In this document: positions 2,165 through 10,537 of the stretch, in pieces
Layout: each line of letters opens with the position of its first letter
Position numbering within the stretch: position 1 is the stretch's first letter
IMG/VR virus record: IMGVR_UViG_3300021181_000006
Coordinates: 1 to 64,000 of that record
Origin: a virus
DNA length: 64,000 nucleotides
Reading direction: 5' to 3' (one strand)
Notes under the pieces: generated by a model
Told to the model about the DNA's origin: nothing
The model's input: only the letters and a program-made list of their open reading frames with translations
Databases searched by the model: none
Program-made: the position numbers and the translations under genes

Positions 2165-3250
2165 GCTTGGATCAGACATCGGAAGTCGGTGCCAGGCCTA
2201 GACCACGTGCTTACCGTGTGTTCTAGTAGTCTATTGTCAGTCCAACCATAGGGAGCACTAGCGGTGACAGATGATTCCTGTTCGTTGCTGCTCTCAGCCC
2301 TCATAGACGGCAAATAAGTTTTTAATGACCAGAACTGAATGGTCAGAGCGAACTAACGGTAAGACGTATTTTTGAAGGTATTTTGGAGGACCACGGAGCC
2401 ATCCAAAGGCCCTCCTAGAGAGGTAGCCTAACTCTGTGGTGAAGACCACGACTCGGGGTGCAAAGCCAGGGATACCTTCTTTCTTTCAAACCATCAACCA
2501 AAGGAAGACCATGTTCAGAAAAGGACTCTACGACATAGAATTCGTTTTTGGTCTTGTGAAAGCTCCAGAAGAGAGAGTATTGGTTGATGGAGATATCATG
2601 AATACCAAATCGTTACGCATGCGTACTTTTGCTTATAAAGGCATTCATTGCGTGAATTGTGAAAGGTATGGCAGGGGTTTCGTTAAAGAGAAACATCACG
2701 CTTCGGATCAGACGTATCATTTTGCCCTCTATCACTGGTATAACGATGATAGAGAGCCTATGATACTGATGACAAAAGATCATATACTACCCATTTCAAA
2801 AGGTGGTCGTGATTTTCTTGGTAACATGCAACCCATGTGTGCGGTGTGTAATTTTACCAAAGCAGGAGATCCTCTTCCTGTTGGTGTGAAGTTCACTCCC
2901 AATGAACTATTTCTTCGTATTCCGCTATCCAGTCCCACTATGACCTCTTAGGTGAGCTGCGTTCATGCTCTTTGCAGCATGAAGCCAGTAGCGAGATCCT
3001 AAGTGCGTCGGGATGATAGACGTGAAGAATGGATAGACAGACACTCAGGTAAGTCCAAGCGCGCTCTTGCTAAGGGTGAAATGCTGAGCTGAATGGGGTG
3101 CGAGTCGCAATGCCCGACACTGTTCGGGGATAGGAGCACGCGCCATGCAAAGATTCCTGCATCGTTAGCCGGACTTAGAGCCGGCCACTCTGATTGACTT
3201 CAGATATACATGAAGCAATCTATAGAGCAATAATATACACGAAAGAGTCC
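2158..3250 (+). ncRNA. Candidate large structured ncRNA (about 650 nt excluding the HNH ORF)
   Basis: ORF-poor and helix-dense flanks at 2158-2510 and 2952-3250; pseudoknot 2210-2217/2356-2363; long-range helices 2414-2424/2943-2952 and 3050-3056/3171-3177. Confidence 0.55.
2511..2951 (+). CDS. HNH endonuclease (McrA-like, Zn-binding), 146 aa from ATG 2511
   Basis: CVNC...TKDHILPISKGG...NMQPMCAVCNFTK motif; AAGGAAG RBS at 2501-2507. Confidence 0.88.
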   Translation: MFRKGLYDIEFVFGLVKAPEERVLVDGDIMNTKSLRMRTFAYKGIHCVNCERYGRGFVKEKHHASDQTYHFALYHWYNDDREPMILMTKDHILPISKGGRDFLGNMQPMCAVCNFTKAGDPLPVGVKFTPNELFLRIPLSSPTMTS

Positions 3251-3287
3251 ATGCAGTATCCTACGAAAGTAGGGTACTGCATTTTTT
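3251..3287 (+). terminator. Rho-independent terminator
   Basis: ATGCAGTATCCTAC-GAAA-GTAGGGTACTGCAT followed by a T run. Confidence 0.85.
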
Positions 3288-3299
3288 AGATACCACACC

Positions 3300-3482
3300 A
3301 TGACTGATAAACATACAGTAACCCTCGAATATCAAGTGCAGCAAGCTCGTCTTGTTAAACAATTACGCGCAGAAAACTCTCGATTACGAAACCGACTGAA
3401 AGAGCTATTAGAATATGAACGACAAAGAGATGCCGAAATCGCAGCCAGCGACACAAGTAGTGACCACATCATGCCCTATTGA
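3300..3482 (+). CDS. Small coiled-coil hypothetical protein
   Basis: 60-aa ORF with heptad-like pattern. Confidence 0.5.
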   Translation: MTDKHTVTLEYQVQQARLVKQLRAENSRLRNRLKELLEYERQRDAEIAASDTSSDHIMPY

Positions 3483-3633
3483 GCATGGTGAGTTTAAGGT
3501 CAGTGTCAGTGAAGCTGAAGCATATTTCGAGAAATATGGCTTATATATGATTAATGGAGGTTTGAAGAAAACCACGCCATCAGAATCGGATCATCAATCT
3601 GATGCAGACGATACGCCTGATATAAGTGTATAA
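3415..3633 (+). CDS. Small hypothetical protein
   Basis: 72-aa ORF overlapping the previous one. Confidence 0.4.
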   Translation: MNDKEMPKSQPATQVVTTSCPIEHGEFKVSVSEAEAYFEKYGLYMINGGLKKTTPSESDHQSDADDTPDISV

Positions 3634-5566
3634 AGTGTTCCGCTGGCGTATCGTGTGACTTTTCTGGATGTATGACACCAGCTTTAGAGAGAGTTTCCAT
3701 TTCATGGAAGCTCTCTCTAAAAATGGGATAGAGTAACTCACCTTCACGGTGCAAAATAACATCTCTAGGATCCTCTTCGTCTTGAGGATCAATAAATAAG
3801 ATATTTTTCTCTACTTTGGATTCCATATTCCCGGGTAATGGAGTAAAAATAATCTTATCAAAGATGGTTTTTTTACCTATGCCTCGTAACCATGGGATAA
3901 ATTCTATAGGAGCATTCTCAAACTTACCGACTGAAACGCTGACTGGCATATCACGGTGTTTAGGCCGATAAGCACCTAATCCAAAGTGTGGTACAAAGGT
4001 TCCACGACAATTACTTGACAGGATACCTTCAGCCCAATACGATGATGTCATCGTATGGAGATCATACACATGCCCAGTATAATCGAATCTTTCGATACCA
4101 ATAATTTTCAACGGGACTATCTCGCCGGAATATCCATCCAACAGCTCGCTAATAATTTTGGAATCGGAAAGACAACTGTTCATCGTAAGCTGAGACAGCT
4201 CGGCCTCAAAAAAAGAGGTCTTATCGACAAAAATTCCGTTATCAGCAGATATATTGCTGGCGAGTCTGCTCTTGAGATAGCTCTGTCCATTCGTGTCAAT
4301 AAAATTACTATTTATAAAATCCTTCGTGAGCATGGTGTCCCAAGACGGTCCACTGCTCATGCTAATACTTTGAGAATGCAGAAGTTGAGCAAGGAAGATC
4401 GCCTTCTGCTCACGAATGCTGCCCACGCCGCCGTCAAAGGACAGTCCAGAACGAAAGAGGAACTTATCCAGAGAGCTAAAACGCGACAGGAGCGAAGTGT
4501 CATTGAATCCAAGGGCGAAAGGATTATGCTCGACTGGCTCAGAGAAGCCGGATTGCATTGTACTCCACAACTCGCTATTGGACCGTATAATATCGATGTC
4601 GCCGTTCATGAAAATGCCATCGCCGTGGAAATCTTTGGAGGAAACTTCCATACGGCTGGCGCTCATGCTGCTTTGTTTCGAGAAAGAACTGATTTTCTCC
4701 TGAATTCTGGTTGGTTGGTTATTATTGTCTGGGATATTAATAGATCTTGTCCATTGTCCAGGGCTGCATCCGATTACATCACTGCCCTCACGAAGATCAC
4801 CCGCTCTCATATACCCATGTGGTGTCAAGAGCATGTGATTAACGGTAACGGACAGCCTTCTTCCATCGGCAAGAATCAACTTAACTACAGGGCCTTTGTA
4901 GGAGGCGACAAATCCTTCGACGATATTATGATCACATCCAGCTGATACAATGGTGTCTGGCAAGACACAGTTTGGGTGTGAATCATGGGTGAGTGGGAAG
5001 GTATAAGACAATAGCTTACGAATATCGTGAATAGTCCCATTAAGAACCCGACAAATTGGACTCGTTCTATCATCATGGACCTCCATACGACGGCAAAGTG
5101 TGAGTCCGTCTTCTAAGAATTCTGACAGGGCTGCTTTCGCATAAATATTCATCGCAGCAGTACGAGCTACAGTGCGGTTATGTCCAAGAACCTGTTTTAC
5201 CGACTGGCCAGTGCGAAGACGGTCTTTAATGTAATCAGATTCTCTAGGACGCGCATTTAACTCCTGGAGCATACCATCGAGATCTTTCTCGTAATCGTAT
5301 GAACCAATACGTAGTTCTGAGGTCTTTATGAGACCTAAGAATCCCTGTGCCCAGTGTCTTCCAGCCATGGCTGCAGCACGCACCAGAGGCAGCACTGAGC
5401 TACGCTTCAACTCCCCGCCTGCCTCAGCAATACCCTTGGAAGCCGCCAGGATCGATTTGATCTCTGCAGGGTGTACTCCACTGGTCAGTGTACGAGTAAG
5501 TGCGTCCACGGGCTTCCTAGAATCCCAGGATCGGAGTCTTGAAGTCTTCGGTATCAGGCGCTTCAC
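3551..5566 (-). CDS. MuF/SPP1 gp7-like head morphogenesis protein containing an intein
   Basis: DDRTSPICRVLNG...HPN|CRGTF motif reconstituted after intein removal (351 aa spliced). Confidence 0.85.
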   Translation of the reverse strand: MKRLIPKTSRLRSWDSRKPVDALTRTLTSGVHPAEIKSILAASKGIAEAGGELKRSSVLPLVRAAAMAGRHWAQGFLGLIKTSELRIGSYDYEKDLDGMLQELNARPRESDYIKDRLRTGQSVKQVLGHNRTVARTAAMNIYAKAALSEFLEDGLTLCRRMEVHDDRTSPICRVLNGTIHDIRKLLSYTFPLTHDSHPNCVLPDTIVSAGCDHNIVEGFVASYKGPVVKLILADGRRLSVTVNHMLLTPHGYMRAGDLREGSDVIGCSPGQWTRSINIPDNNNQPTRIQEKISSFSKQSSMSASRMEVSSKDFHGDGIFMNGDIDIIRSNSELWSTMQSGFSEPVEHNPFALGFNDTSLLSRFSSLDKFLFRSGLSFDGGVGSIREQKAIFLAQLLHSQSISMSSGPSWDTMLTKDFINSNFIDTNGQSYLKSRLASNISADNGIFVDKTSFFEAELSQLTMNSCLSDSKIISELLDGYSGEIVPLKIIGIERFDYTGHVYDLHTMTSSYWAEGILSSNCRGTFVPHFGLGAYRPKHRDMPVSVSVGKFENAPIEFIPWLRGIGKKTIFDKIIFTPLPGNMESKVEKNILFIDPQDEEDPRDVILHREGELLYPIFRESFHEMETLSKAGVIHPEKSHDTPAEHFIHLYQAYRLHQIDDPILMAWFSSNLH
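4015..4060 (+). promoter_or_regulatory. Sigma70-type promoter, palindromic operator and RBS for the antisense endonuclease
   Basis: TTGACA 4015-4020, 17-nt spacer, TACGAT 4038-4043; ATACGATGA-TG-TCATCGTAT 4037-4056; GGAG 4057-4060, 9 nt before ATG 4070. Confidence 0.75.
4070..4945 (+). CDS. HTH-repeat + Vsr/DUF559-like endonuclease nested antisense within the intein (291 aa)
   Basis: Two HTH motifs (ISIQQLANNFGIGKTTVHRKL; SALEIALSIRVNKITIYKIL); PYNIDVA...AVEIFGGNFH...LLNSGWLVIIVWD nuclease motif. Confidence 0.88.
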   Translation: MPSIIESFDTNNFQRDYLAGISIQQLANNFGIGKTTVHRKLRQLGLKKRGLIDKNSVISRYIAGESALEIALSIRVNKITIYKILREHGVPRRSTAHANTLRMQKLSKEDRLLLTNAAHAAVKGQSRTKEELIQRAKTRQERSVIESKGERIMLDWLREAGLHCTPQLAIGPYNIDVAVHENAIAVEIFGGNFHTAGAHAALFRERTDFLLNSGWLVIIVWDINRSCPLSRAASDYITALTKITRSHIPMWCQEHVINGNGQPSSIGKNQLNYRAFVGGDKSFDDIMITSS

Positions 5567-5738
5567 AAGGCTCTGTATACTTCAGTACGATCAGCTTTTC
5601 GTTGGCTTTGGTGATATGGGTCTCGTTAGCGACACCCTCTACACCTTGAGCCGATAGGATCTCGCCATAACGGTCTCGATCCGTACTGACGTCCAGATCG
5701 AGAACTTCAACCTTATGATTTCTCTGTGTATTCATCAT
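5517..5738 (-). CDS. Small hypothetical protein upstream of MuF gene
   Basis: GAGGTGG RBS before ATG 5738; overlaps the MuF start. Confidence 0.55.
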   Translation of the reverse strand: MMNTQRNHKVEVLDLDVSTDRDRYGEILSAQGVEGVANETHITKANEKLIVLKYTEPCEAPDTEDFKTPILGF

Positions 5739-5789
5739 AACCACCTCTCTACGAGTATATCGTAGATTTACAAACAAGGAAGACTCATT

Positions 5790-6278
5790 ATGTTACGCAA
5801 CGCTACGCTTATGAAAGAACTGACTATCCGCTTCTCTGGCCCAGTCAGAATTATCAAGGATCCAAAGGCGATCACACCGTCTATCAGCGGTATCTCTTAT
5901 CTAAAGCCTCATGAGTACGAGATTGAGAATCGTTTCTTGATTAAGAAGCTCGGTTTACATCGCCAAGTCTATGGCAAAGCCATGCACCGAATCGCCATCA
6001 AGAATAATCTGCAGGCTGGAACCGGTGTTCGGATCTGGTTTTCTCAGTCGAAGACGCGTCATGGAATCGACATGATCAATGATAATGGTACGCTCCTGTT
6101 CATGTACAACAACGAGTTGTTTAAGAGCATCCGCGCCATCATCTACTTCATCACCGGTCAGTATCCCGCAAGCCTTGGAGATACGTTCCATGCCTGTGTC
6201 GATGGTAAGGGTAGGGATCTCAGCTACTACCTCACCATGATCAGTCTCTATCATTACAAGAACAAGAAAGTGGCGTAA
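5790..6278 (+). CDS. Hypothetical protein
   Basis: 162-aa ORF with AAGGAAG RBS. Confidence 0.65.
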   Translation: MLRNATLMKELTIRFSGPVRIIKDPKAITPSISGISYLKPHEYEIENRFLIKKLGLHRQVYGKAMHRIAIKNNLQAGTGVRIWFSQSKTRHGIDMINDNGTLLFMYNNELFKSIRAIIYFITGQYPASLGDTFHACVDGKGRDLSYYLTMISLYHYKNKKVA

Positions 6279-6368
6279 CTTGGTATAAGTTCAATGATGG
6301 TCCTTCGGGACTGTCATTTTTTACTATTTATAAATACTACAATTATTAACCCAGGTTAAGGTTAATGA

Positions 6369-7118
6369 ATGATTTCTCTGTCTTATAAAGCATCTTCGAA
6401 TGCTCCGTACCATATCACACATGTCGATAAAAACGCTCATGTGCAAACTCATAGTAAACTCAGGGAATCTTTTATTTCCGGTGAGTTAAATGTTTCTACT
6501 ATGCGAATGGAAACTATTATGACTCCACTTAAAAATGGAGTTAGTGATGTCAGGGTCTATCGTACTTATGGTCAACGCAGAAATATGCCATGGCCGAAAC
6601 GTATGCCTGTAGAACCTAAACTCTTCATACAGACTCCTGGTCCTATTTGGCAAGTAAAAATCGGTTGTAATATCGATGGTTATGTACGTTATCTGAGTCG
6701 TGATCGTTCTAGCGAAAGTAAAGATACATTAGCCTTTAGTCATATCAACGATCTGCTCAACCACTTCTCTCTGCATTGGAAATCTTCTGAAACCAAGAGT
6801 GTCTATGATCAGGCAGAAATCATAGATAATGGTACATTAATGACTCTGAGAGAATTTCTCGGATTCCGTGGTAACAGATGCTCTTATGAACGTGTATTTG
6901 TACCAAAGAAGAATTTCTATGCATTACATAGCGATGTCTTCCATCATCCTGATGATGCGTCAGAGAAGGTATCAGTCAATATAGCTTATGGATATACTAA
7001 CCCTGAAATTATTACGGTAAATGATCGTTCTGGTAAGGAATGGATTGCTATCGATCCATTCCTAGAATTTGTCCATAATGTCAGCCGTCGTCCTTTATCA
7101 GAGTATGTCAAGACTTGA
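6369..7118 (+). CDS. Hypothetical protein (AT-rich island)
   Basis: 249-aa ORF. Confidence 0.65.
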   Translation: MISLSYKASSNAPYHITHVDKNAHVQTHSKLRESFISGELNVSTMRMETIMTPLKNGVSDVRVYRTYGQRRNMPWPKRMPVEPKLFIQTPGPIWQVKIGCNIDGYVRYLSRDRSSESKDTLAFSHINDLLNHFSLHWKSSETKSVYDQAEIIDNGTLMTLREFLGFRGNRCSYERVFVPKKNFYALHSDVFHHPDDASEKVSVNIAYGYTNPEIITVNDRSGKEWIAIDPFLEFVHNVSRRPLSEYVKT

Positions 7119-7830
7119 AGTCCTCATCAGAGCACAGAATAAACTCCTGTGCTCTGAGTTTGAAAAATCAGAAGAATTATCGATTTTACGGTGGTTATGG
7201 ACACTATCAGATAGTGTAGATTTGAACGATAAAGTAGAAGTAAAAGTAGCATACTTTATTGAATACGATAACGAATCAACCGAAGGACTATCGTATAAAA
7301 CTCCTTTTAGAGAGTTTAAAGACTTAGTTGGTTTTATTGCTGAATACCTAAAAAATAGGAAAGTTATCCAACCTATTAAAATAGAGCAAATAACCGCAAC
7401 ACATACAGTGATAGATCCTTCATCCTCGATAACAGAAGTATATGAAGATGAAGTTTCTGATGATGAAAGAGCATTATTGGTAAAACAGCCTGTCCATGAG
7501 GCTGAATATGAACCATATATGCGGGCTATTAGCCAATTTTTTTCTGATCAAAATATTCGGTATCAACCGAGTACAGGACGAGGTTTAGGTATAGTTCATT
7601 TATCTGATAATAGGACTATTAGATTAATACGTACTGTATCTGTAGGTTACTCTTTTGGTATCACGACGCCTGCCTATTATCAACAAACGGTATTTTGCGC
7701 CATTAAATATAAAGATACTATTTATATTTATCCGACATCGGTATTTATTGGTCTTAGTAAAATGACTATATGCTCTACATTTCTTTGTACTAAGAAAGAT
7801 GCATGCATAGCTCGGGTAGCTGTAACATAA
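7069..7830 (+). CDS. Hypothetical protein (AT-rich island)
   Basis: 253-aa ORF; start uncertain. Confidence 0.65.
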   Translation: MSIMSAVVLYQSMSRLEVLIRAQNKLLCSEFEKSEELSILRWLWTLSDSVDLNDKVEVKVAYFIEYDNESTEGLSYKTPFREFKDLVGFIAEYLKNRKVIQPIKIEQITATHTVIDPSSSITEVYEDEVSDDERALLVKQPVHEAEYEPYMRAISQFFSDQNIRYQPSTGRGLGIVHLSDNRTIRLIRTVSVGYSFGITTPAYYQQTVFCAIKYKDTIYIYPTSVFIGLSKMTICSTFLCTKKDACIARVAVT

Positions 7831-7864
7831 AAGAACCCTCCATACATTTCTGTATGGAGGGTTC
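7828..7864 (-). terminator. Terminator between convergent units
   Basis: 13-bp stem GAACCCTCCATAC/GTATGGAGGGTTC with A run on the left. Confidence 0.8.
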
Positions 7865-8911: not shown

Positions 8912-10537
8912 CTAGAGTGATAGCCATCCCAATGACATACTATACAATTTTAGTCGCATAGCCTGTGAATTCACACTGAGCGTAGCTCCACTCACTCCAT
9001 CAATATTAAGCGTACTGGCTATAGTAACATTATTCGTTCCAGCACTGGCAGTAATGTCTTTGATGATAATTTCATCATTAAGAGTCGGGCTTACAGGTAA
9101 TGTAATAGTAAATATTCCACCACTAGAATCAGTCGTTATAATTTGTTTATGAACGGCTGGGCTCGGCAGTGGAGTAGTGCCGGTAGTTGCAGTGGTACGA
9201 TAAAATAAATGGTTATAAGTAATACTGACAATAAACGTATGCGTATCTAATTGATACCCAATAGAATATTCAGCAGGATTTGTAGAGTAATATCCAGCGC
9301 TTACCGCAGAGAAATCATACCAAAACTGAGTCGTAGGCGGTGCGCTGGTATTAATAGGCGATAATCCAGTGGTAGTAATAGCTCCAGAAATGGTTGCCTG
9401 CCCATTTTGAGCATACCCATTAGCTCCAATAGTCGCTTGAGTCTCAGTTGCTACAGCAGGAGTTACTGTTGCTACGTTGGAAGCAATACCAGTGATTCTG
9501 AAGAGTCCTAAGTTTAATGATGTTCCAGAAGTAATGAGGATGGCATCGCCAATAGCTCTACCGAGTAGCGAGTCAGAAGTAATGGACGATGCACCGTTGT
9601 TAAAGATCCAGCCAGATCCAGGTGAAGCAGTTAATGTTACCTGGGTAGATGGCTGACTGACCACTGCTAATGGTATATCAGTGGCTAAAGTAGCCGCTAT
9701 CCAGCATTGATTACTATATAATAATGGCTCTAAATAATACTGAGGTAATACCACAGCGTTATTAACGGTAGTATGAGGAATAGCTCCCAAAGCACTCGTG
9801 GTAATAAAAACATTACTACCACTTGGACTAGCAGCACCAGAAATAGCAGCGGCTTGCGTCGCATTCACTCGTCCATCTAAGACTGATTGTGTGACATAAG
9901 CATTTCCACTACCGGGAGATACCGCTGCATCAAGCGCAGCTTTTTCATTCGCTGTAGGTAACGACGTAATAGGATCTGATCCAGTCGTCTCATGGGTTGC
10001 GTGATGTGGTGTGGTTGGCGACGCCGAAAGGATAAACTTCGAAGTACCTGCATCATATTTAATAACAAACTGGTCAGTAATGCCAGCTGAGTTCACCACA
10101 ACACCGTTAATAGATCCGGCATTTTGCGGATCAGCCAATGTACCACTCAGTCCACCAACATTCAGGACATCAGATCCTGATAATTGGTGAGTGGCAACGT
10201 GAGCTGCAGGTGTACCGCCTGAGGTACCAGTCGCATCAGTAGTAATAACAAAATTCGTACCGTTATACTTTAATATAGCATTAGAAACTAAAGATCCTGT
10301 AATAGCATGAGCTAAAATATGATCTGCATTCTGCGCTGTAGTTAAAATACCAGTTAACCCGGTGAGATCTAATTGATCTGCACCACCATTTTGATGGCGA
10401 GCATGGTGATCTAACAGTAATGCCGTATCAGTGGTATGAGCCGCTTCCAACTGTGTAATAGCATCCTGTACATTATCTGCAGTGATAATGCCAGCATCAG
10501 TGATGAAACGGATGACTTGCGCGAGAGGATTAGACAT
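8912..10537 (-). CDS. Tail fibre-associated virion protein with HxxxHxxxGxD repeats
   Basis: HHARHQNGGADQL, HVATHQLSGSDVL, HHATHETTGSDPI; T/S/A-rich. Confidence 0.6.
   Translation of the reverse strand: MSNPLAQVIRFITDAGIITADNVQDAITQLEAAHTTDTALLLDHHARHQNGGADQLDLTGLTGILTTAQNADHILAHAITGSLVSNAILKYNGTNFVITTDATGTSGGTPAAHVATHQLSGSDVLNVGGLSGTLADPQNAGSINGVVVNSAGITDQFVIKYDAGTSKFILSASPTTPHHATHETTGSDPITSLPTANEKAALDAAVSPGSGNAYVTQSVLDGRVNATQAAAISGAASPSGSNVFITTSALGAIPHTTVNNAVVLPQYYLEPLLYSNQCWIAATLATDIPLAVVSQPSTQVTLTASPGSGWIFNNGASSITSDSLLGRAIGDAILITSGTSLNLGLFRITGIASNVATVTPAVATETQATIGANGYAQNGQATISGAITTTGLSPINTSAPPTTQFWYDFSAVSAGYYSTNPAEYSIGYQLDTHTFIVSITYNHLFYRTTATTGTTPLPSPAVHKQIITTDSSGGIFTITLPVSPTLNDEIIIKDITASAGTNNVTIASTLNIDGVSGATLSVNSQAMRLKLYSMSLGWLSL

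Follow-up and report, generated by a model that had tools for sequence, protein, structure and literature searches.

An intein and an antisense nuclease gene in a phage head gene

The DNA that we analysed, a 64,000-nt stretch of a 184-kb phage genome (hereafter the window), carries a head morphogenesis gene interrupted by an intein, and within the intein lies a nuclease gene on the opposite strand. The signals that could drive this nuclease overlap the last 20 codons of the intein.

3551-5566, minus strand: host gene, an open reading frame for a diverged MuF-like head morphogenesis protein (671-aa precursor including the intein)
4010-4969, minus strand: intein of 320 aa, from Cys1 (CVLPDT...) to the terminal Asn (...GILSSN), followed by Cys +1
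4010-4072, minus strand: block F/G codons (HVYDLHTMTSSYWAEGILSSN) bearing antisense expression signals
4015-4020, plus strand: -35 hexamer TTGACA, a 6/6 consensus match, antisense of the Leu-Ser-Ser codons CTG TCA AGT
4037-4056, either strand: perfect inverted repeat of 9+9 bp with a 2-nt centre (TG), lineage-specific
4038-4043, plus strand: -10 hexamer TACGAT, a weaker counterpart of the TATAAT that the family consensus has at this position
4050-4051, plus strand: predicted transcription start, 7-8 nt past the -10, placed by sigma-70 geometry
4057-4060, plus strand: Shine-Dalgarno sequence GGAG, antisense of Leu CTC and the first base of the next codon (VYDL-H)
4070-4945, plus strand: antisense homing nuclease gene, encoding two helix-turn-helix (HTH) domains and a Vsr/DUF559-like PD-(D/E)XK domain

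The MuF identity of the host gene was assigned by transitive similarity, because the two exteins of the window have no match in Pfam or PHROGs but are 33-37% identical to the host proteins of three related loci (L089, L137 and L004), whose N-exteins match the Pfam family Phage_Mu_F. The intein is recognized by the Pfam model Intein_splicing with an E-value of 1.5e-7, which is under the curated cut-off. Cys1, block F (HVYDL), the terminal Asn and Cys +1 are all found in the host frame, and splicing is predicted. The penultimate intein residue is Ser instead of His, as it is in 70 of 99 relatives.

The nuclease open reading frame is complete and lies wholly within the intein. Domain searches place HTH_7 over its cut-off and MTES_1575 and DUF559 under theirs, and in the family alignment the protein retains all 14 of the family-invariant residues, including D181, E192 and H199. 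No conserved terminator hairpin was found downstream of the nuclease stop codon, and an Rfam scan of positions 3200-5800 returned nothing meaningful.

Candidate expression signals within the splicing blocks

Every signal in the list is antisense to intein codons for GHVYDL...GILSSN, where the minus strand reads GHVYDLHTMTSSYWAEGILSSN and then Cys +1. The two hexamers are separated by 17 nt (4021-4037), both by script and by direct reading, and the -10 hexamer keeps T1, A2, A5 and T6 of the consensus (4/6). The candidate promoter of the window thus totals 10/12, its -35 being perfect and its spacer 17 nt long, and the Shine-Dalgarno sequence and ATG are intact. GGAG stands 9 nt ahead of the ATG (4070-4072), which lies opposite the block F His codon CAT. 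The arms of the inverted repeat, ATACGATGA (4037-4045) and TCATCGTAT (4048-4056), are exact reverse complements, and the repeat overlaps both the -10 and the predicted transcription start. The original prediction had described TTGACA, 17 nt, TACGAT, a 9-bp repeat, GGAG and an ATG at 4070, and each of these is present as described, again by script and by reading.

Taken alone, the hexamer pair of the window (10/12) is at chance level in this phage. Promoter-like sites number 35 in 12 kb versus 28.4 +/- 5 in shuffled sequence, and 10/12 sites number 65 genome-wide versus about 105 expected, such that sigma-70-like sites are not enriched across the genome and are, if anything, depleted. The intergenic regions of the phage are instead enriched in a different motif, GGTATAA; the motif AGGTATAA is not enriched within the window. 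In a scan for consensus promoters, the embedded promoter is the sole plus-strand site scoring at least 9/12 between a terminator at 3251-3282 and the ATG at 4070. By sequence comparison, the combined signal of the window is highly significant only through its positional homology with the consensus of the family.

Conservation among related loci

A megablast search of positions 3400-5700 against phage records gave no match, and a scan of viral contigs with the single protein gave no relatives. Relatives of the nuclease were recovered from viral contigs by an alignment-based scan. The arrangement was seen in 331 IMG/VR and 361 metagenome hits and also in phages of Salmonella, E. coli, Pseudomonas, Vibrio, Klebsiella and Pantoea, and the window nuclease directly matches the Gordonia phages Fosterous, Affeca, Angelicage and Vivi2 by tblastn. 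In 80 of 80 IMG/VR relatives the nuclease open reading frame is antisense, in register and within a reading frame of 290-1060 codons (338-1060 where the end of the locus does not shorten it). The nearest protein relative (P0003, 62% identity) is on a contig of only 908 nt, and the nearest loci with upstream DNA are L004 and L088 (56% nuclease identity) and L089 (49%). Comparisons were made over 99 distinct related loci, which are kin to each other, so that binomial p-values are nominal.

The consensus of the 60 nt in this family reads TTGACA, 17 nt, TATAAT, GGAGG and ATG at fixed spacing, in the same columns as the signals of the window. When each locus was scored out of 12 against TTGACA-N16-18-TATAAT at the homologous position, 29 of the 99 loci scored 12/12, 50 scored at least 11 and 64 scored at least 10. 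None of 1780 control windows reached 12/12, and 0.28% of them reached at least 10/12. Moreover, every family site with a score of at least 10/12 is at one position, with the end of the -10 hexamer 26 nt ahead of the start codon (29 nt where there is an extra codon). TATAAT occupies the -10 position in 46/99 loci, whereas the TACGAT of the window is unique. A Shine-Dalgarno core is found in 81/99 loci, and ATG serves as the anchor start codon in 62 loci, GTG in 9. The promoter result stands in 55 of 84 clusters formed at 70% nuclease identity and over contigs of 40-62% GC; the promoter is uncommon in contigs above 62% GC (26%), and Gordonia phage Fosterous shows no clear sign of it.

A second sub-family, represented by E. 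coli phage Snoke, Salmonella phage Jersey and Pantoea phage AH01 (72 phage records), carries TGcTATAAT on block G instead, and Vibrio phage H2 has TTGACT-18-TATTAT. These comparisons lend support to the prediction that a host-sigma-type antisense promoter is written in the block F/G codons, and likewise to the prediction that a ribosome binding site and start codon are written there and carried along with the intein. Conservation in homologous inteins had been proposed as a check; the promoter, Shine-Dalgarno sequence and start codon were kept, and the palindrome was not.

Synonymous sites and the intein C-terminus

Codon usage of the family was compared with that of the extein background. A Ser at codon 2 is spelled TCA in 29/29 cases (extein background 0.16), Leu10 is TTA in 29/33 (background 0.08), Ser11 is TCA in 22/22, Leu16 is CTC in 35/37 loci (background 0.23) and His20 is CAT in 27/32. 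The control codons Asn0, Gly5 and Asp17 are used as in the background. Third-codon positions within the hexamers and the Shine-Dalgarno sequence carry 0.66-1.42 bits, with the four most conserved at 1.13-1.42 and the flanks weaker, versus 0.07-0.4 bits outside these elements. Synonymous codons are frozen precisely where they spell the signals and are free elsewhere. Furthermore, the -35 hexamer is present in 49 of 70 loci with a penultimate Ser, versus none of 14 with the canonical penultimate His.

A proposed portable expression cassette and its alternatives

We propose, with a probability of roughly 0.7, that the promoter, Shine-Dalgarno sequence and start codon form a cassette, conserved and portable, from which the antisense Vsr-like homing nuclease is expressed. 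The plus strand of the last 60 nt of the intein would be a self-contained unit in which a sigma-70-type promoter is followed by a ~20-nt leader, containing the Shine-Dalgarno sequence, and by a start codon. The -35 would be overprinted on I-L-S-S-N of block G, the -10 on S-L-Y of block F, the Shine-Dalgarno sequence on D-L-Q and the ATG on the block F His. Since the cassette is within the intein boundaries, it would be copied with the intein at each homing event, and since its promoter matches a near-universal bacterial consensus, it should function in many hosts. Selection on these signals at the DNA level would set codon choice, and it probably also dictates the unusual Ser-Ser-Asn C-terminus that replaces the canonical His-Asn. 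Transcription would start near position 4050, and the host holoenzyme would presumably read the promoter early, a timing suggested only by the kind of promoter. If the promoter fires, an antisense RNA to the MuF mRNA, which had also been predicted, follows from the geometry.

On this reading the window holds a weakened copy of the cassette, in which a Leu-to-Ser change has turned the -10 from TATAAT into TACGAT. The same change completes the 9-bp palindrome, which is most likely a lineage-specific accident or a local regulatory addition and not a feature of the family. Somewhat more likely than not, in our estimate, is a fuller picture in which a family of MuF inteins carries a host-independent cassette antisense on blocks F and G, 60 nt are under splicing, promoter and translation-start constraint at once, the DNA signals and not the protein fix Ser-Ser-Asn, and this phage has gained a private operator or hairpin.

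A less likely reading, although the one that we take most seriously among the alternatives, is that the cassette in this phage is a decaying relic whose -10 no longer fires, such that the nuclease is silent or is expressed otherwise. The -10 of the window matches at 4/6 and is unique within the family, sigma-70-like sites are not enriched in the genome, and the phage has an intergenic motif of its own. However, the nuclease open reading frame is intact with its full set of invariant residues, the promoter still has a perfect -35 and spacer along with T1, A2 and T6 in its -10, and neither the Shine-Dalgarno sequence nor the ATG is damaged.

Two other readings concern the palindrome. Inverted repeats with 9-bp arms occur in 0.17% of 66-nt control windows, and among the relatives arms of at least 8 bp are found in 2/99 loci versus about 1 expected. 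It is improbable, in our estimate, that the repeat controls translation as an RNA hairpin, in which case read-through transcripts would pair half of the Shine-Dalgarno sequence and transcripts from the embedded promoter, lacking the 5' arm, would be translated. Positions 4025-4066 are predicted to fold into a 7-bp stem with three pairs beyond a one-base bulge (-11.6 kcal/mol, z -2.3), two of the three being C-G pairs that involve the GG of GGAG, and an RNA beginning at 4050 would be without such structure. There are also precedents for I-TevI, mobE and Vsr-like nuclease genes in fractured genes (PMC2988022 and PMC2677866), and one relative (L074) has an 8-bp repeat of the same geometry that is otherwise unrelated to that of the window. 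Nevertheless, only two of the four Shine-Dalgarno bases (G4057 and G4058) are paired in the predicted fold, and the near-chance count of such arms shows that the repeat is not conserved. A source of read-through is also not evident among consensus promoters, since no upstream plus-strand site reaches 9/12 and the plus-strand terminator at 3251-3282 is strong, although phage-specific promoters may exist.

The original prediction had read the palindrome as an operator through which the HTH domains of the nuclease repress its own promoter; such autorepression would resemble that of I-TevI. The geometry would suit this arrangement: the 20-bp repeat has 9-bp arms with centres 11 bp apart and lies over the -10 and predicted start, the nuclease carries HTH_7-type domains, such a repeat is rare by chance, and the palindrome is completed by precisely the two bases through which the -10 is weakened. 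I-TevI itself offers a precedent (PMC2988022). However, the palindrome is missing in 97/99 relatives, including the closest (L004 and L089), and neither further copies nor half-site pairs are found in the 184-kb genome beyond chance. Against the homing site, reconstructed as the intein-less allele, the palindrome matches at 10/20 at best, equal to the median of 2000 shuffles, versus 15/20 for I-TevI. A nuclease with two tandem HTH domains would moreover be expected to read an asymmetric site. With no conservation, no second copy in the genome and a chance-level match to the homing site, the autorepression claim did not find support, and we regard an operator of this kind as improbable.

It is very improbable that the conserved bases serve the sense strand, through rare codons pacing MuF/intein translation or through mRNA structure, with a merely coincidental resemblance to a promoter: although TCA and TTA are indeed rare in exteins, the frozen bases give both consensus hexamers, the optimal 17-nt spacer, and GGAGG and ATG at canonical distances, they are oriented correctly for an open reading frame that begins exactly there, perfect promoters occur in 29/99 loci versus 0/1780 controls, and the second sub-family has a different, equally canonical extended -10. 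Codon pacing as the cause of the frozen codons was rejected on this spelling of promoter, Shine-Dalgarno sequence and ATG. Co-conversion during homing was rejected as the cause of conservation because it would not pick out signal positions, and these are singled out among lineages that are only 31-61% identical to the window nuclease.

Relation to known systems

Antisense VSR-like homing endonucleases have been described in minor-capsid inteins of actinobacteriophages (Gosselin, Arsenault and Gogarten, bioRxiv 10.1101/2025.01.02.630785). As in that report, the window has an intact MuF/minor capsid intein, and a Vsr-like (probably EDxHD) nuclease open reading frame runs antisense through its central part. 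That study is confined to actinophages, and the words promoter, ribosome and express or expression are absent from its text, whereas here the host range is wider and the expression signals are located within blocks F and G. Antisense LAGLIDADG nucleases in inteins, such as that of Synechocystis DnaX and others (Gorbalenya 1998 and Gogarten 2002, as relayed in the same preprint), are likewise described there as residing on the strand opposite the intein, but in these cases the nuclease family and the host genes differ.

The td intron of T4 provides a second comparison, in which an I-TevI operator lies over the late promoter inside the intron and is identical to the homing site at 15 of 20 positions (PMC2988022). 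In both systems a mobile element contains a homing nuclease gene together with a promoter for it, and a candidate protein-binding site lies over that promoter. Unlike I-TevI, the present case involves an intein, a host-type promoter, an antisense gene and a palindrome that is not conserved and matches the homing site at the chance level. Hairpins that sequester a ribosome binding site and have an embedded promoter are known for Aeh1 mobE and T4 I-TevI (PMC2988022), and hairpins also occur upstream of VSR-like homing endonuclease genes in fractured genes (PMC2677866). Similarly, the repeat in the window holds the -10 and abuts the Shine-Dalgarno sequence, and promoter-proximal transcripts would lose the 5' arm. 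It differs in that half of the Shine-Dalgarno sequence is paired, a source of read-through was not seen, and a repeat of this kind is found in only 2/99 loci.

Inteins with antisense nucleases are thus already known; how such a nuclease is expressed from within a late structural gene is not addressed in the papers that were searched. If the proposal of a conserved cassette in the splicing blocks is correct, it would explain the self-sufficiency of these elements, which would need nothing from the genome that they invade, as well as their movement among phages of very different hosts and the unusual C-terminal sequence of this intein family. The arrangement would also be a clean natural case of regulatory DNA overprinted on catalytically constrained coding sequence, with a synonymous-site signature strong enough to be detected by comparison alone. 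Because the element is carried by cultivable phages of Salmonella, E. coli and Vibrio, the proposal is open to direct test.

Host gene, intein and antisense nuclease

The window covers the initial 64 kb of one contig of 184,466 bp (42% GC); the relevant features are as follows.

3551-5566, - strand: ORF of the MuF-type host gene (671-aa product)
4010-4969, - strand: intein of 320 aa in the middle of the 671-aa protein, beginning CVLPDT after ...SHPN and ending ...GILSSN before CRGTF
4015-4020, + strand: -35 hexamer TTGACA (direct reading and script)
4037-4056: perfect inverted repeat ATACGATGA / TG / TCATCGTAT, 9-bp arms
4038-4043, + strand: -10 hexamer TACGAT, 17-nt spacer after TTGACA
4057-4060, + strand: Shine-Dalgarno (SD) GGAG
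4070, + strand: nuclease start codon ATG
4070-4945, + strand: nuclease ORF, with HTH_7-type helix-turn-helix domains and a Vsr/DUF559/MTES_1575-like nuclease domain

The hexamers, spacer, repeat, GGAG and ATG of the original prediction are each present at these positions, all antisense to the codons for HVYDLHTMTSSYWAEGILSSN. The nuclease ORF lies wholly within the intein, codon-aligned with its frame, and keeps all family-invariant residues. The intein matches Intein_splicing (Pfam) with an E-value of 1.5e-7, under the curated cut-off. No match to the exteins was found in Pfam or PHROGs. They share 33-37% identity with the host proteins of three related loci (L089, L137 and L004) whose N-exteins match Phage_Mu_F, a match that is above threshold in more distant relatives, and so, judged by similarity, the host gene is a diverged MuF-type head morphogenesis gene. 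It is a solitary - strand gene with + strand blocks on both sides: a tmRNA/HNH region upstream, up to a strong terminator (3251-3282), and three + strand ORFs downstream (5790-7830) with a bidirectional terminator at their end (7833-7864). These flanks isolate it from the structural genes that follow on the - strand (8912-10537 onward).

All 116 phage records matched by the nuclease in tblastn carry it under MuF or head-morphogenesis genes, and the ORF is antisense to such a gene in E. coli phage Snoke, Gordonia phage Fosterous and Vibrio phage H2. An alignment-based scan found 331 relatives in IMG/VR and 361 in metagenomes. In 80/80 examined IMG/VR loci, the nuclease ORF is antisense, in register and inside a reading frame of 290-1060 codons (338-1060 when only frames not ended by the locus edge count). 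The nuclease ORF terminates opposite a Leu or Ser codon close to the intein N-terminus, both in the window (4943-4945, stop codon antisense to intein Ser9) and in L011, L018, L046 and other related loci; in several loci the stop lies four codons into the N-extein (PPLHPN), such that the ORF extends past the intein boundary.

A probable expression cassette conserved within the splicing blocks

The promoter hexamers by themselves are unremarkable. A consensus scan gives 35 sites per 12 kb versus 28.4 +/- 5 in shuffles, and sigma-70-like sites genome-wide are depleted at 10/12 (65, ~105 expected) and number 6 at 11/12 (6.4 expected). TTGACA-17-TACGAT is the sole + strand site of at least 9/12 from terminator 3251-3282 to the nuclease ATG. 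Support for the proposal that a promoter, ribosome-binding site (RBS) and start codon travel with the intein comes from a cassette conserved in position among 99 distinct related loci.

Each locus was aligned on its block F motif and terminal Asn. In most of them 60 nt separate the intein end from the start of the nuclease, and the + strand consensus, aTTGCTTGAcAnnAtnCCATTGgCgATGTATAATGanGtnannGTTTGGAGGTCATAaACATG, has the layout TTGACA, 17 nt, TATAAT, ~13 nt, GGAGG, 8 nt, ATG. The hexamer pair matches at 12/12 in 29/99 distinct loci, at >=11/12 in 50/99 and at >=10/12 in 64/99; of 1780 random 100-nt windows from the same loci, none has 12/12 and 0.28% reach 10/12. The -10 end always precedes the start codon by 26 nt (29 nt with one inserted codon) across the 99 distinct loci, an SD core is found in 81/99, and the anchor codon is ATG in 62/99 and GTG in 9/99. 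The promoter pattern persists in 55/84 clusters (70% nuclease identity) and across 40% to 62% GC. The reading as promoter, RBS and start codon is thereby supported by strong comparative evidence.

A second sub-family, ending GIIAHN, includes Snoke, Salmonella Jersey and Pantoea AH01, and its segment is shared by 72 phage records. An extended -10 located ~45 nt before the nuclease ATG replaces the -35/-10 pair of most loci here, and because two different solutions meet the same need, the promoter reading is strengthened. This extended -10, TGcTATAAT, is written on block G codons G-I-I-A-H-N (L001, 2399-2470; L085; L086). Vibrio H2 has TTGACT-18-TATTAT. The L004/L088 pair, the closest relatives with upstream DNA, has TTGTCA-17-TATAGT; Pro replaces the block F His there, the antisense ATG is gone, and the nuclease apparently starts two codons downstream.

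Probable selection on synonymous sites

Third-codon positions of the intein frame within the -35, -10 and SD carry 0.66-1.42 bits (1.13-1.42 for the four most conserved), versus 0.07-0.4 bits outside the signals. Codon choice was compared with usage in exteins of the same loci.

Codon use at signal positions (codons counted back from the terminal Asn, codon 0; p-values for this test are nominal, as loci share kinship)
Ser, codon 2: TCA, 29/29; extein background 0.16
Leu, codon 10: TTA, 29/33; extein background 0.08
Ser, codon 11: TCA, 22/22; extein background 0.16
Leu of VYDL, codon 16: CTC, 35/37; extein background 0.23
His of block F, codon 20: CAT, 27/32; extein background 0.46

Asn0, Gly5 and Asp17, which are conserved but lie outside the signals, show no bias, with codons at background frequencies. 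Common descent does not explain the codon freezing, because adjacent codons are synonymously saturated. Penultimate Ser occurs in 70/99 loci, 49/70 of which have a -35 of >=5/6, and the canonical penultimate His occurs in 14, with such a -35 in 0/14. As the -35 goes with penultimate Ser and never with penultimate His, this pattern suggests that the -35 constrains the C-terminal residues of the intein.

The window's copy and its palindrome

By position, the window's TTGACA-17-TACGAT corresponds exactly to the family promoter, with perfect -35 and spacer. Its -10 deviates because Ser (TCG) stands where the family has Leu (TTA); it retains T1, A2 and T6, and TACGAT occurs in no other of the 99 loci. 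The window cassette is probably functional yet weakened. That it has decayed is a real possibility, because the intergenic regions of this phage prefer a different motif, GGTATAA. Genome-wide, upstream intergenic regions hold 18 occurrences of GGTATA and 16 of GTATAA versus ~4 expected, and these may represent a promoter motif of the phage's own, different from the host-type cassette. An additional in-frame ATG at 4055-4057, five codons 5' of the conserved start, lies within the palindrome and ahead of the SD. ORF callers start the nuclease there; the family alignment favours ATG 4070.

Conservation in homologous inteins, which holds for promoter, SD and start codon, does not extend to the palindrome. 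Such a repeat occurs in 0.17% of control 66-nt windows, a local figure for a feature originally chosen from 64 kb. Arms of >=8 bp occur in this segment only in the window (9 bp) and in L074, an IMG/VR locus (8 bp); in the remaining 97 they are no longer than 6 bp, like controls. The L074 repeat (~32-56 nt past the intein end, 8-nt loop) has the same geometry and an unrelated sequence; it begins in the -10 and spans the position of the family GGAGG, which L074 has lost.

It is possible that the palindrome forms a hairpin masking the RBS in read-through transcripts, which has precedent: promoter-containing hairpins do so for mobE and I-TevI (PMC2988022), and similar hairpins lie 5' of Vsr-like nuclease genes, the same nuclease family, in fractured genes (PMC2677866). 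A stem of -11.6 kcal/mol (z -2.3) is predicted and would vanish in RNA starting at 4050. However, it pairs only the GG of GGAG, and no source of read-through is visible. The two bases degrading the window -10 are exactly those completing the palindrome, an overlap that is suggestive and no more. Autorepression through an operator bound by the nuclease HTH domains, as originally proposed, is unsupported, because the palindrome is missing in the closest relatives with upstream DNA (L004, 56% nuclease identity; L089, 49%), does not recur elsewhere in the genome when up to 4 mismatches are allowed (half-sites are at chance frequency), and matches the reconstructed intein-less allele at best 10/20, the shuffle median, whereas the operator of I-TevI agrees with its own homing site at 15/20 (PMC2988022).

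Relation to known inteins

The antisense-nuclease intein architecture is already known. For LAGLIDADG nucleases it has been on record since 1998 (as cited in bioRxiv 10.1101/2025.01.02.630785), and antisense Vsr-like nucleases are described in minor-capsid inteins of actinophages (bioRxiv 10.1101/2025.01.02.630785), including Gordonia phages that are direct matches of the window nuclease. The words promoter, ribosome and express are absent from the text of that report. The literature searched gave no account of expression signals written into splicing blocks. Three points therefore appear to be new: the overprinted cassette with its conservation, its occurrence outside actinophages, and its influence on the sequence of the intein.
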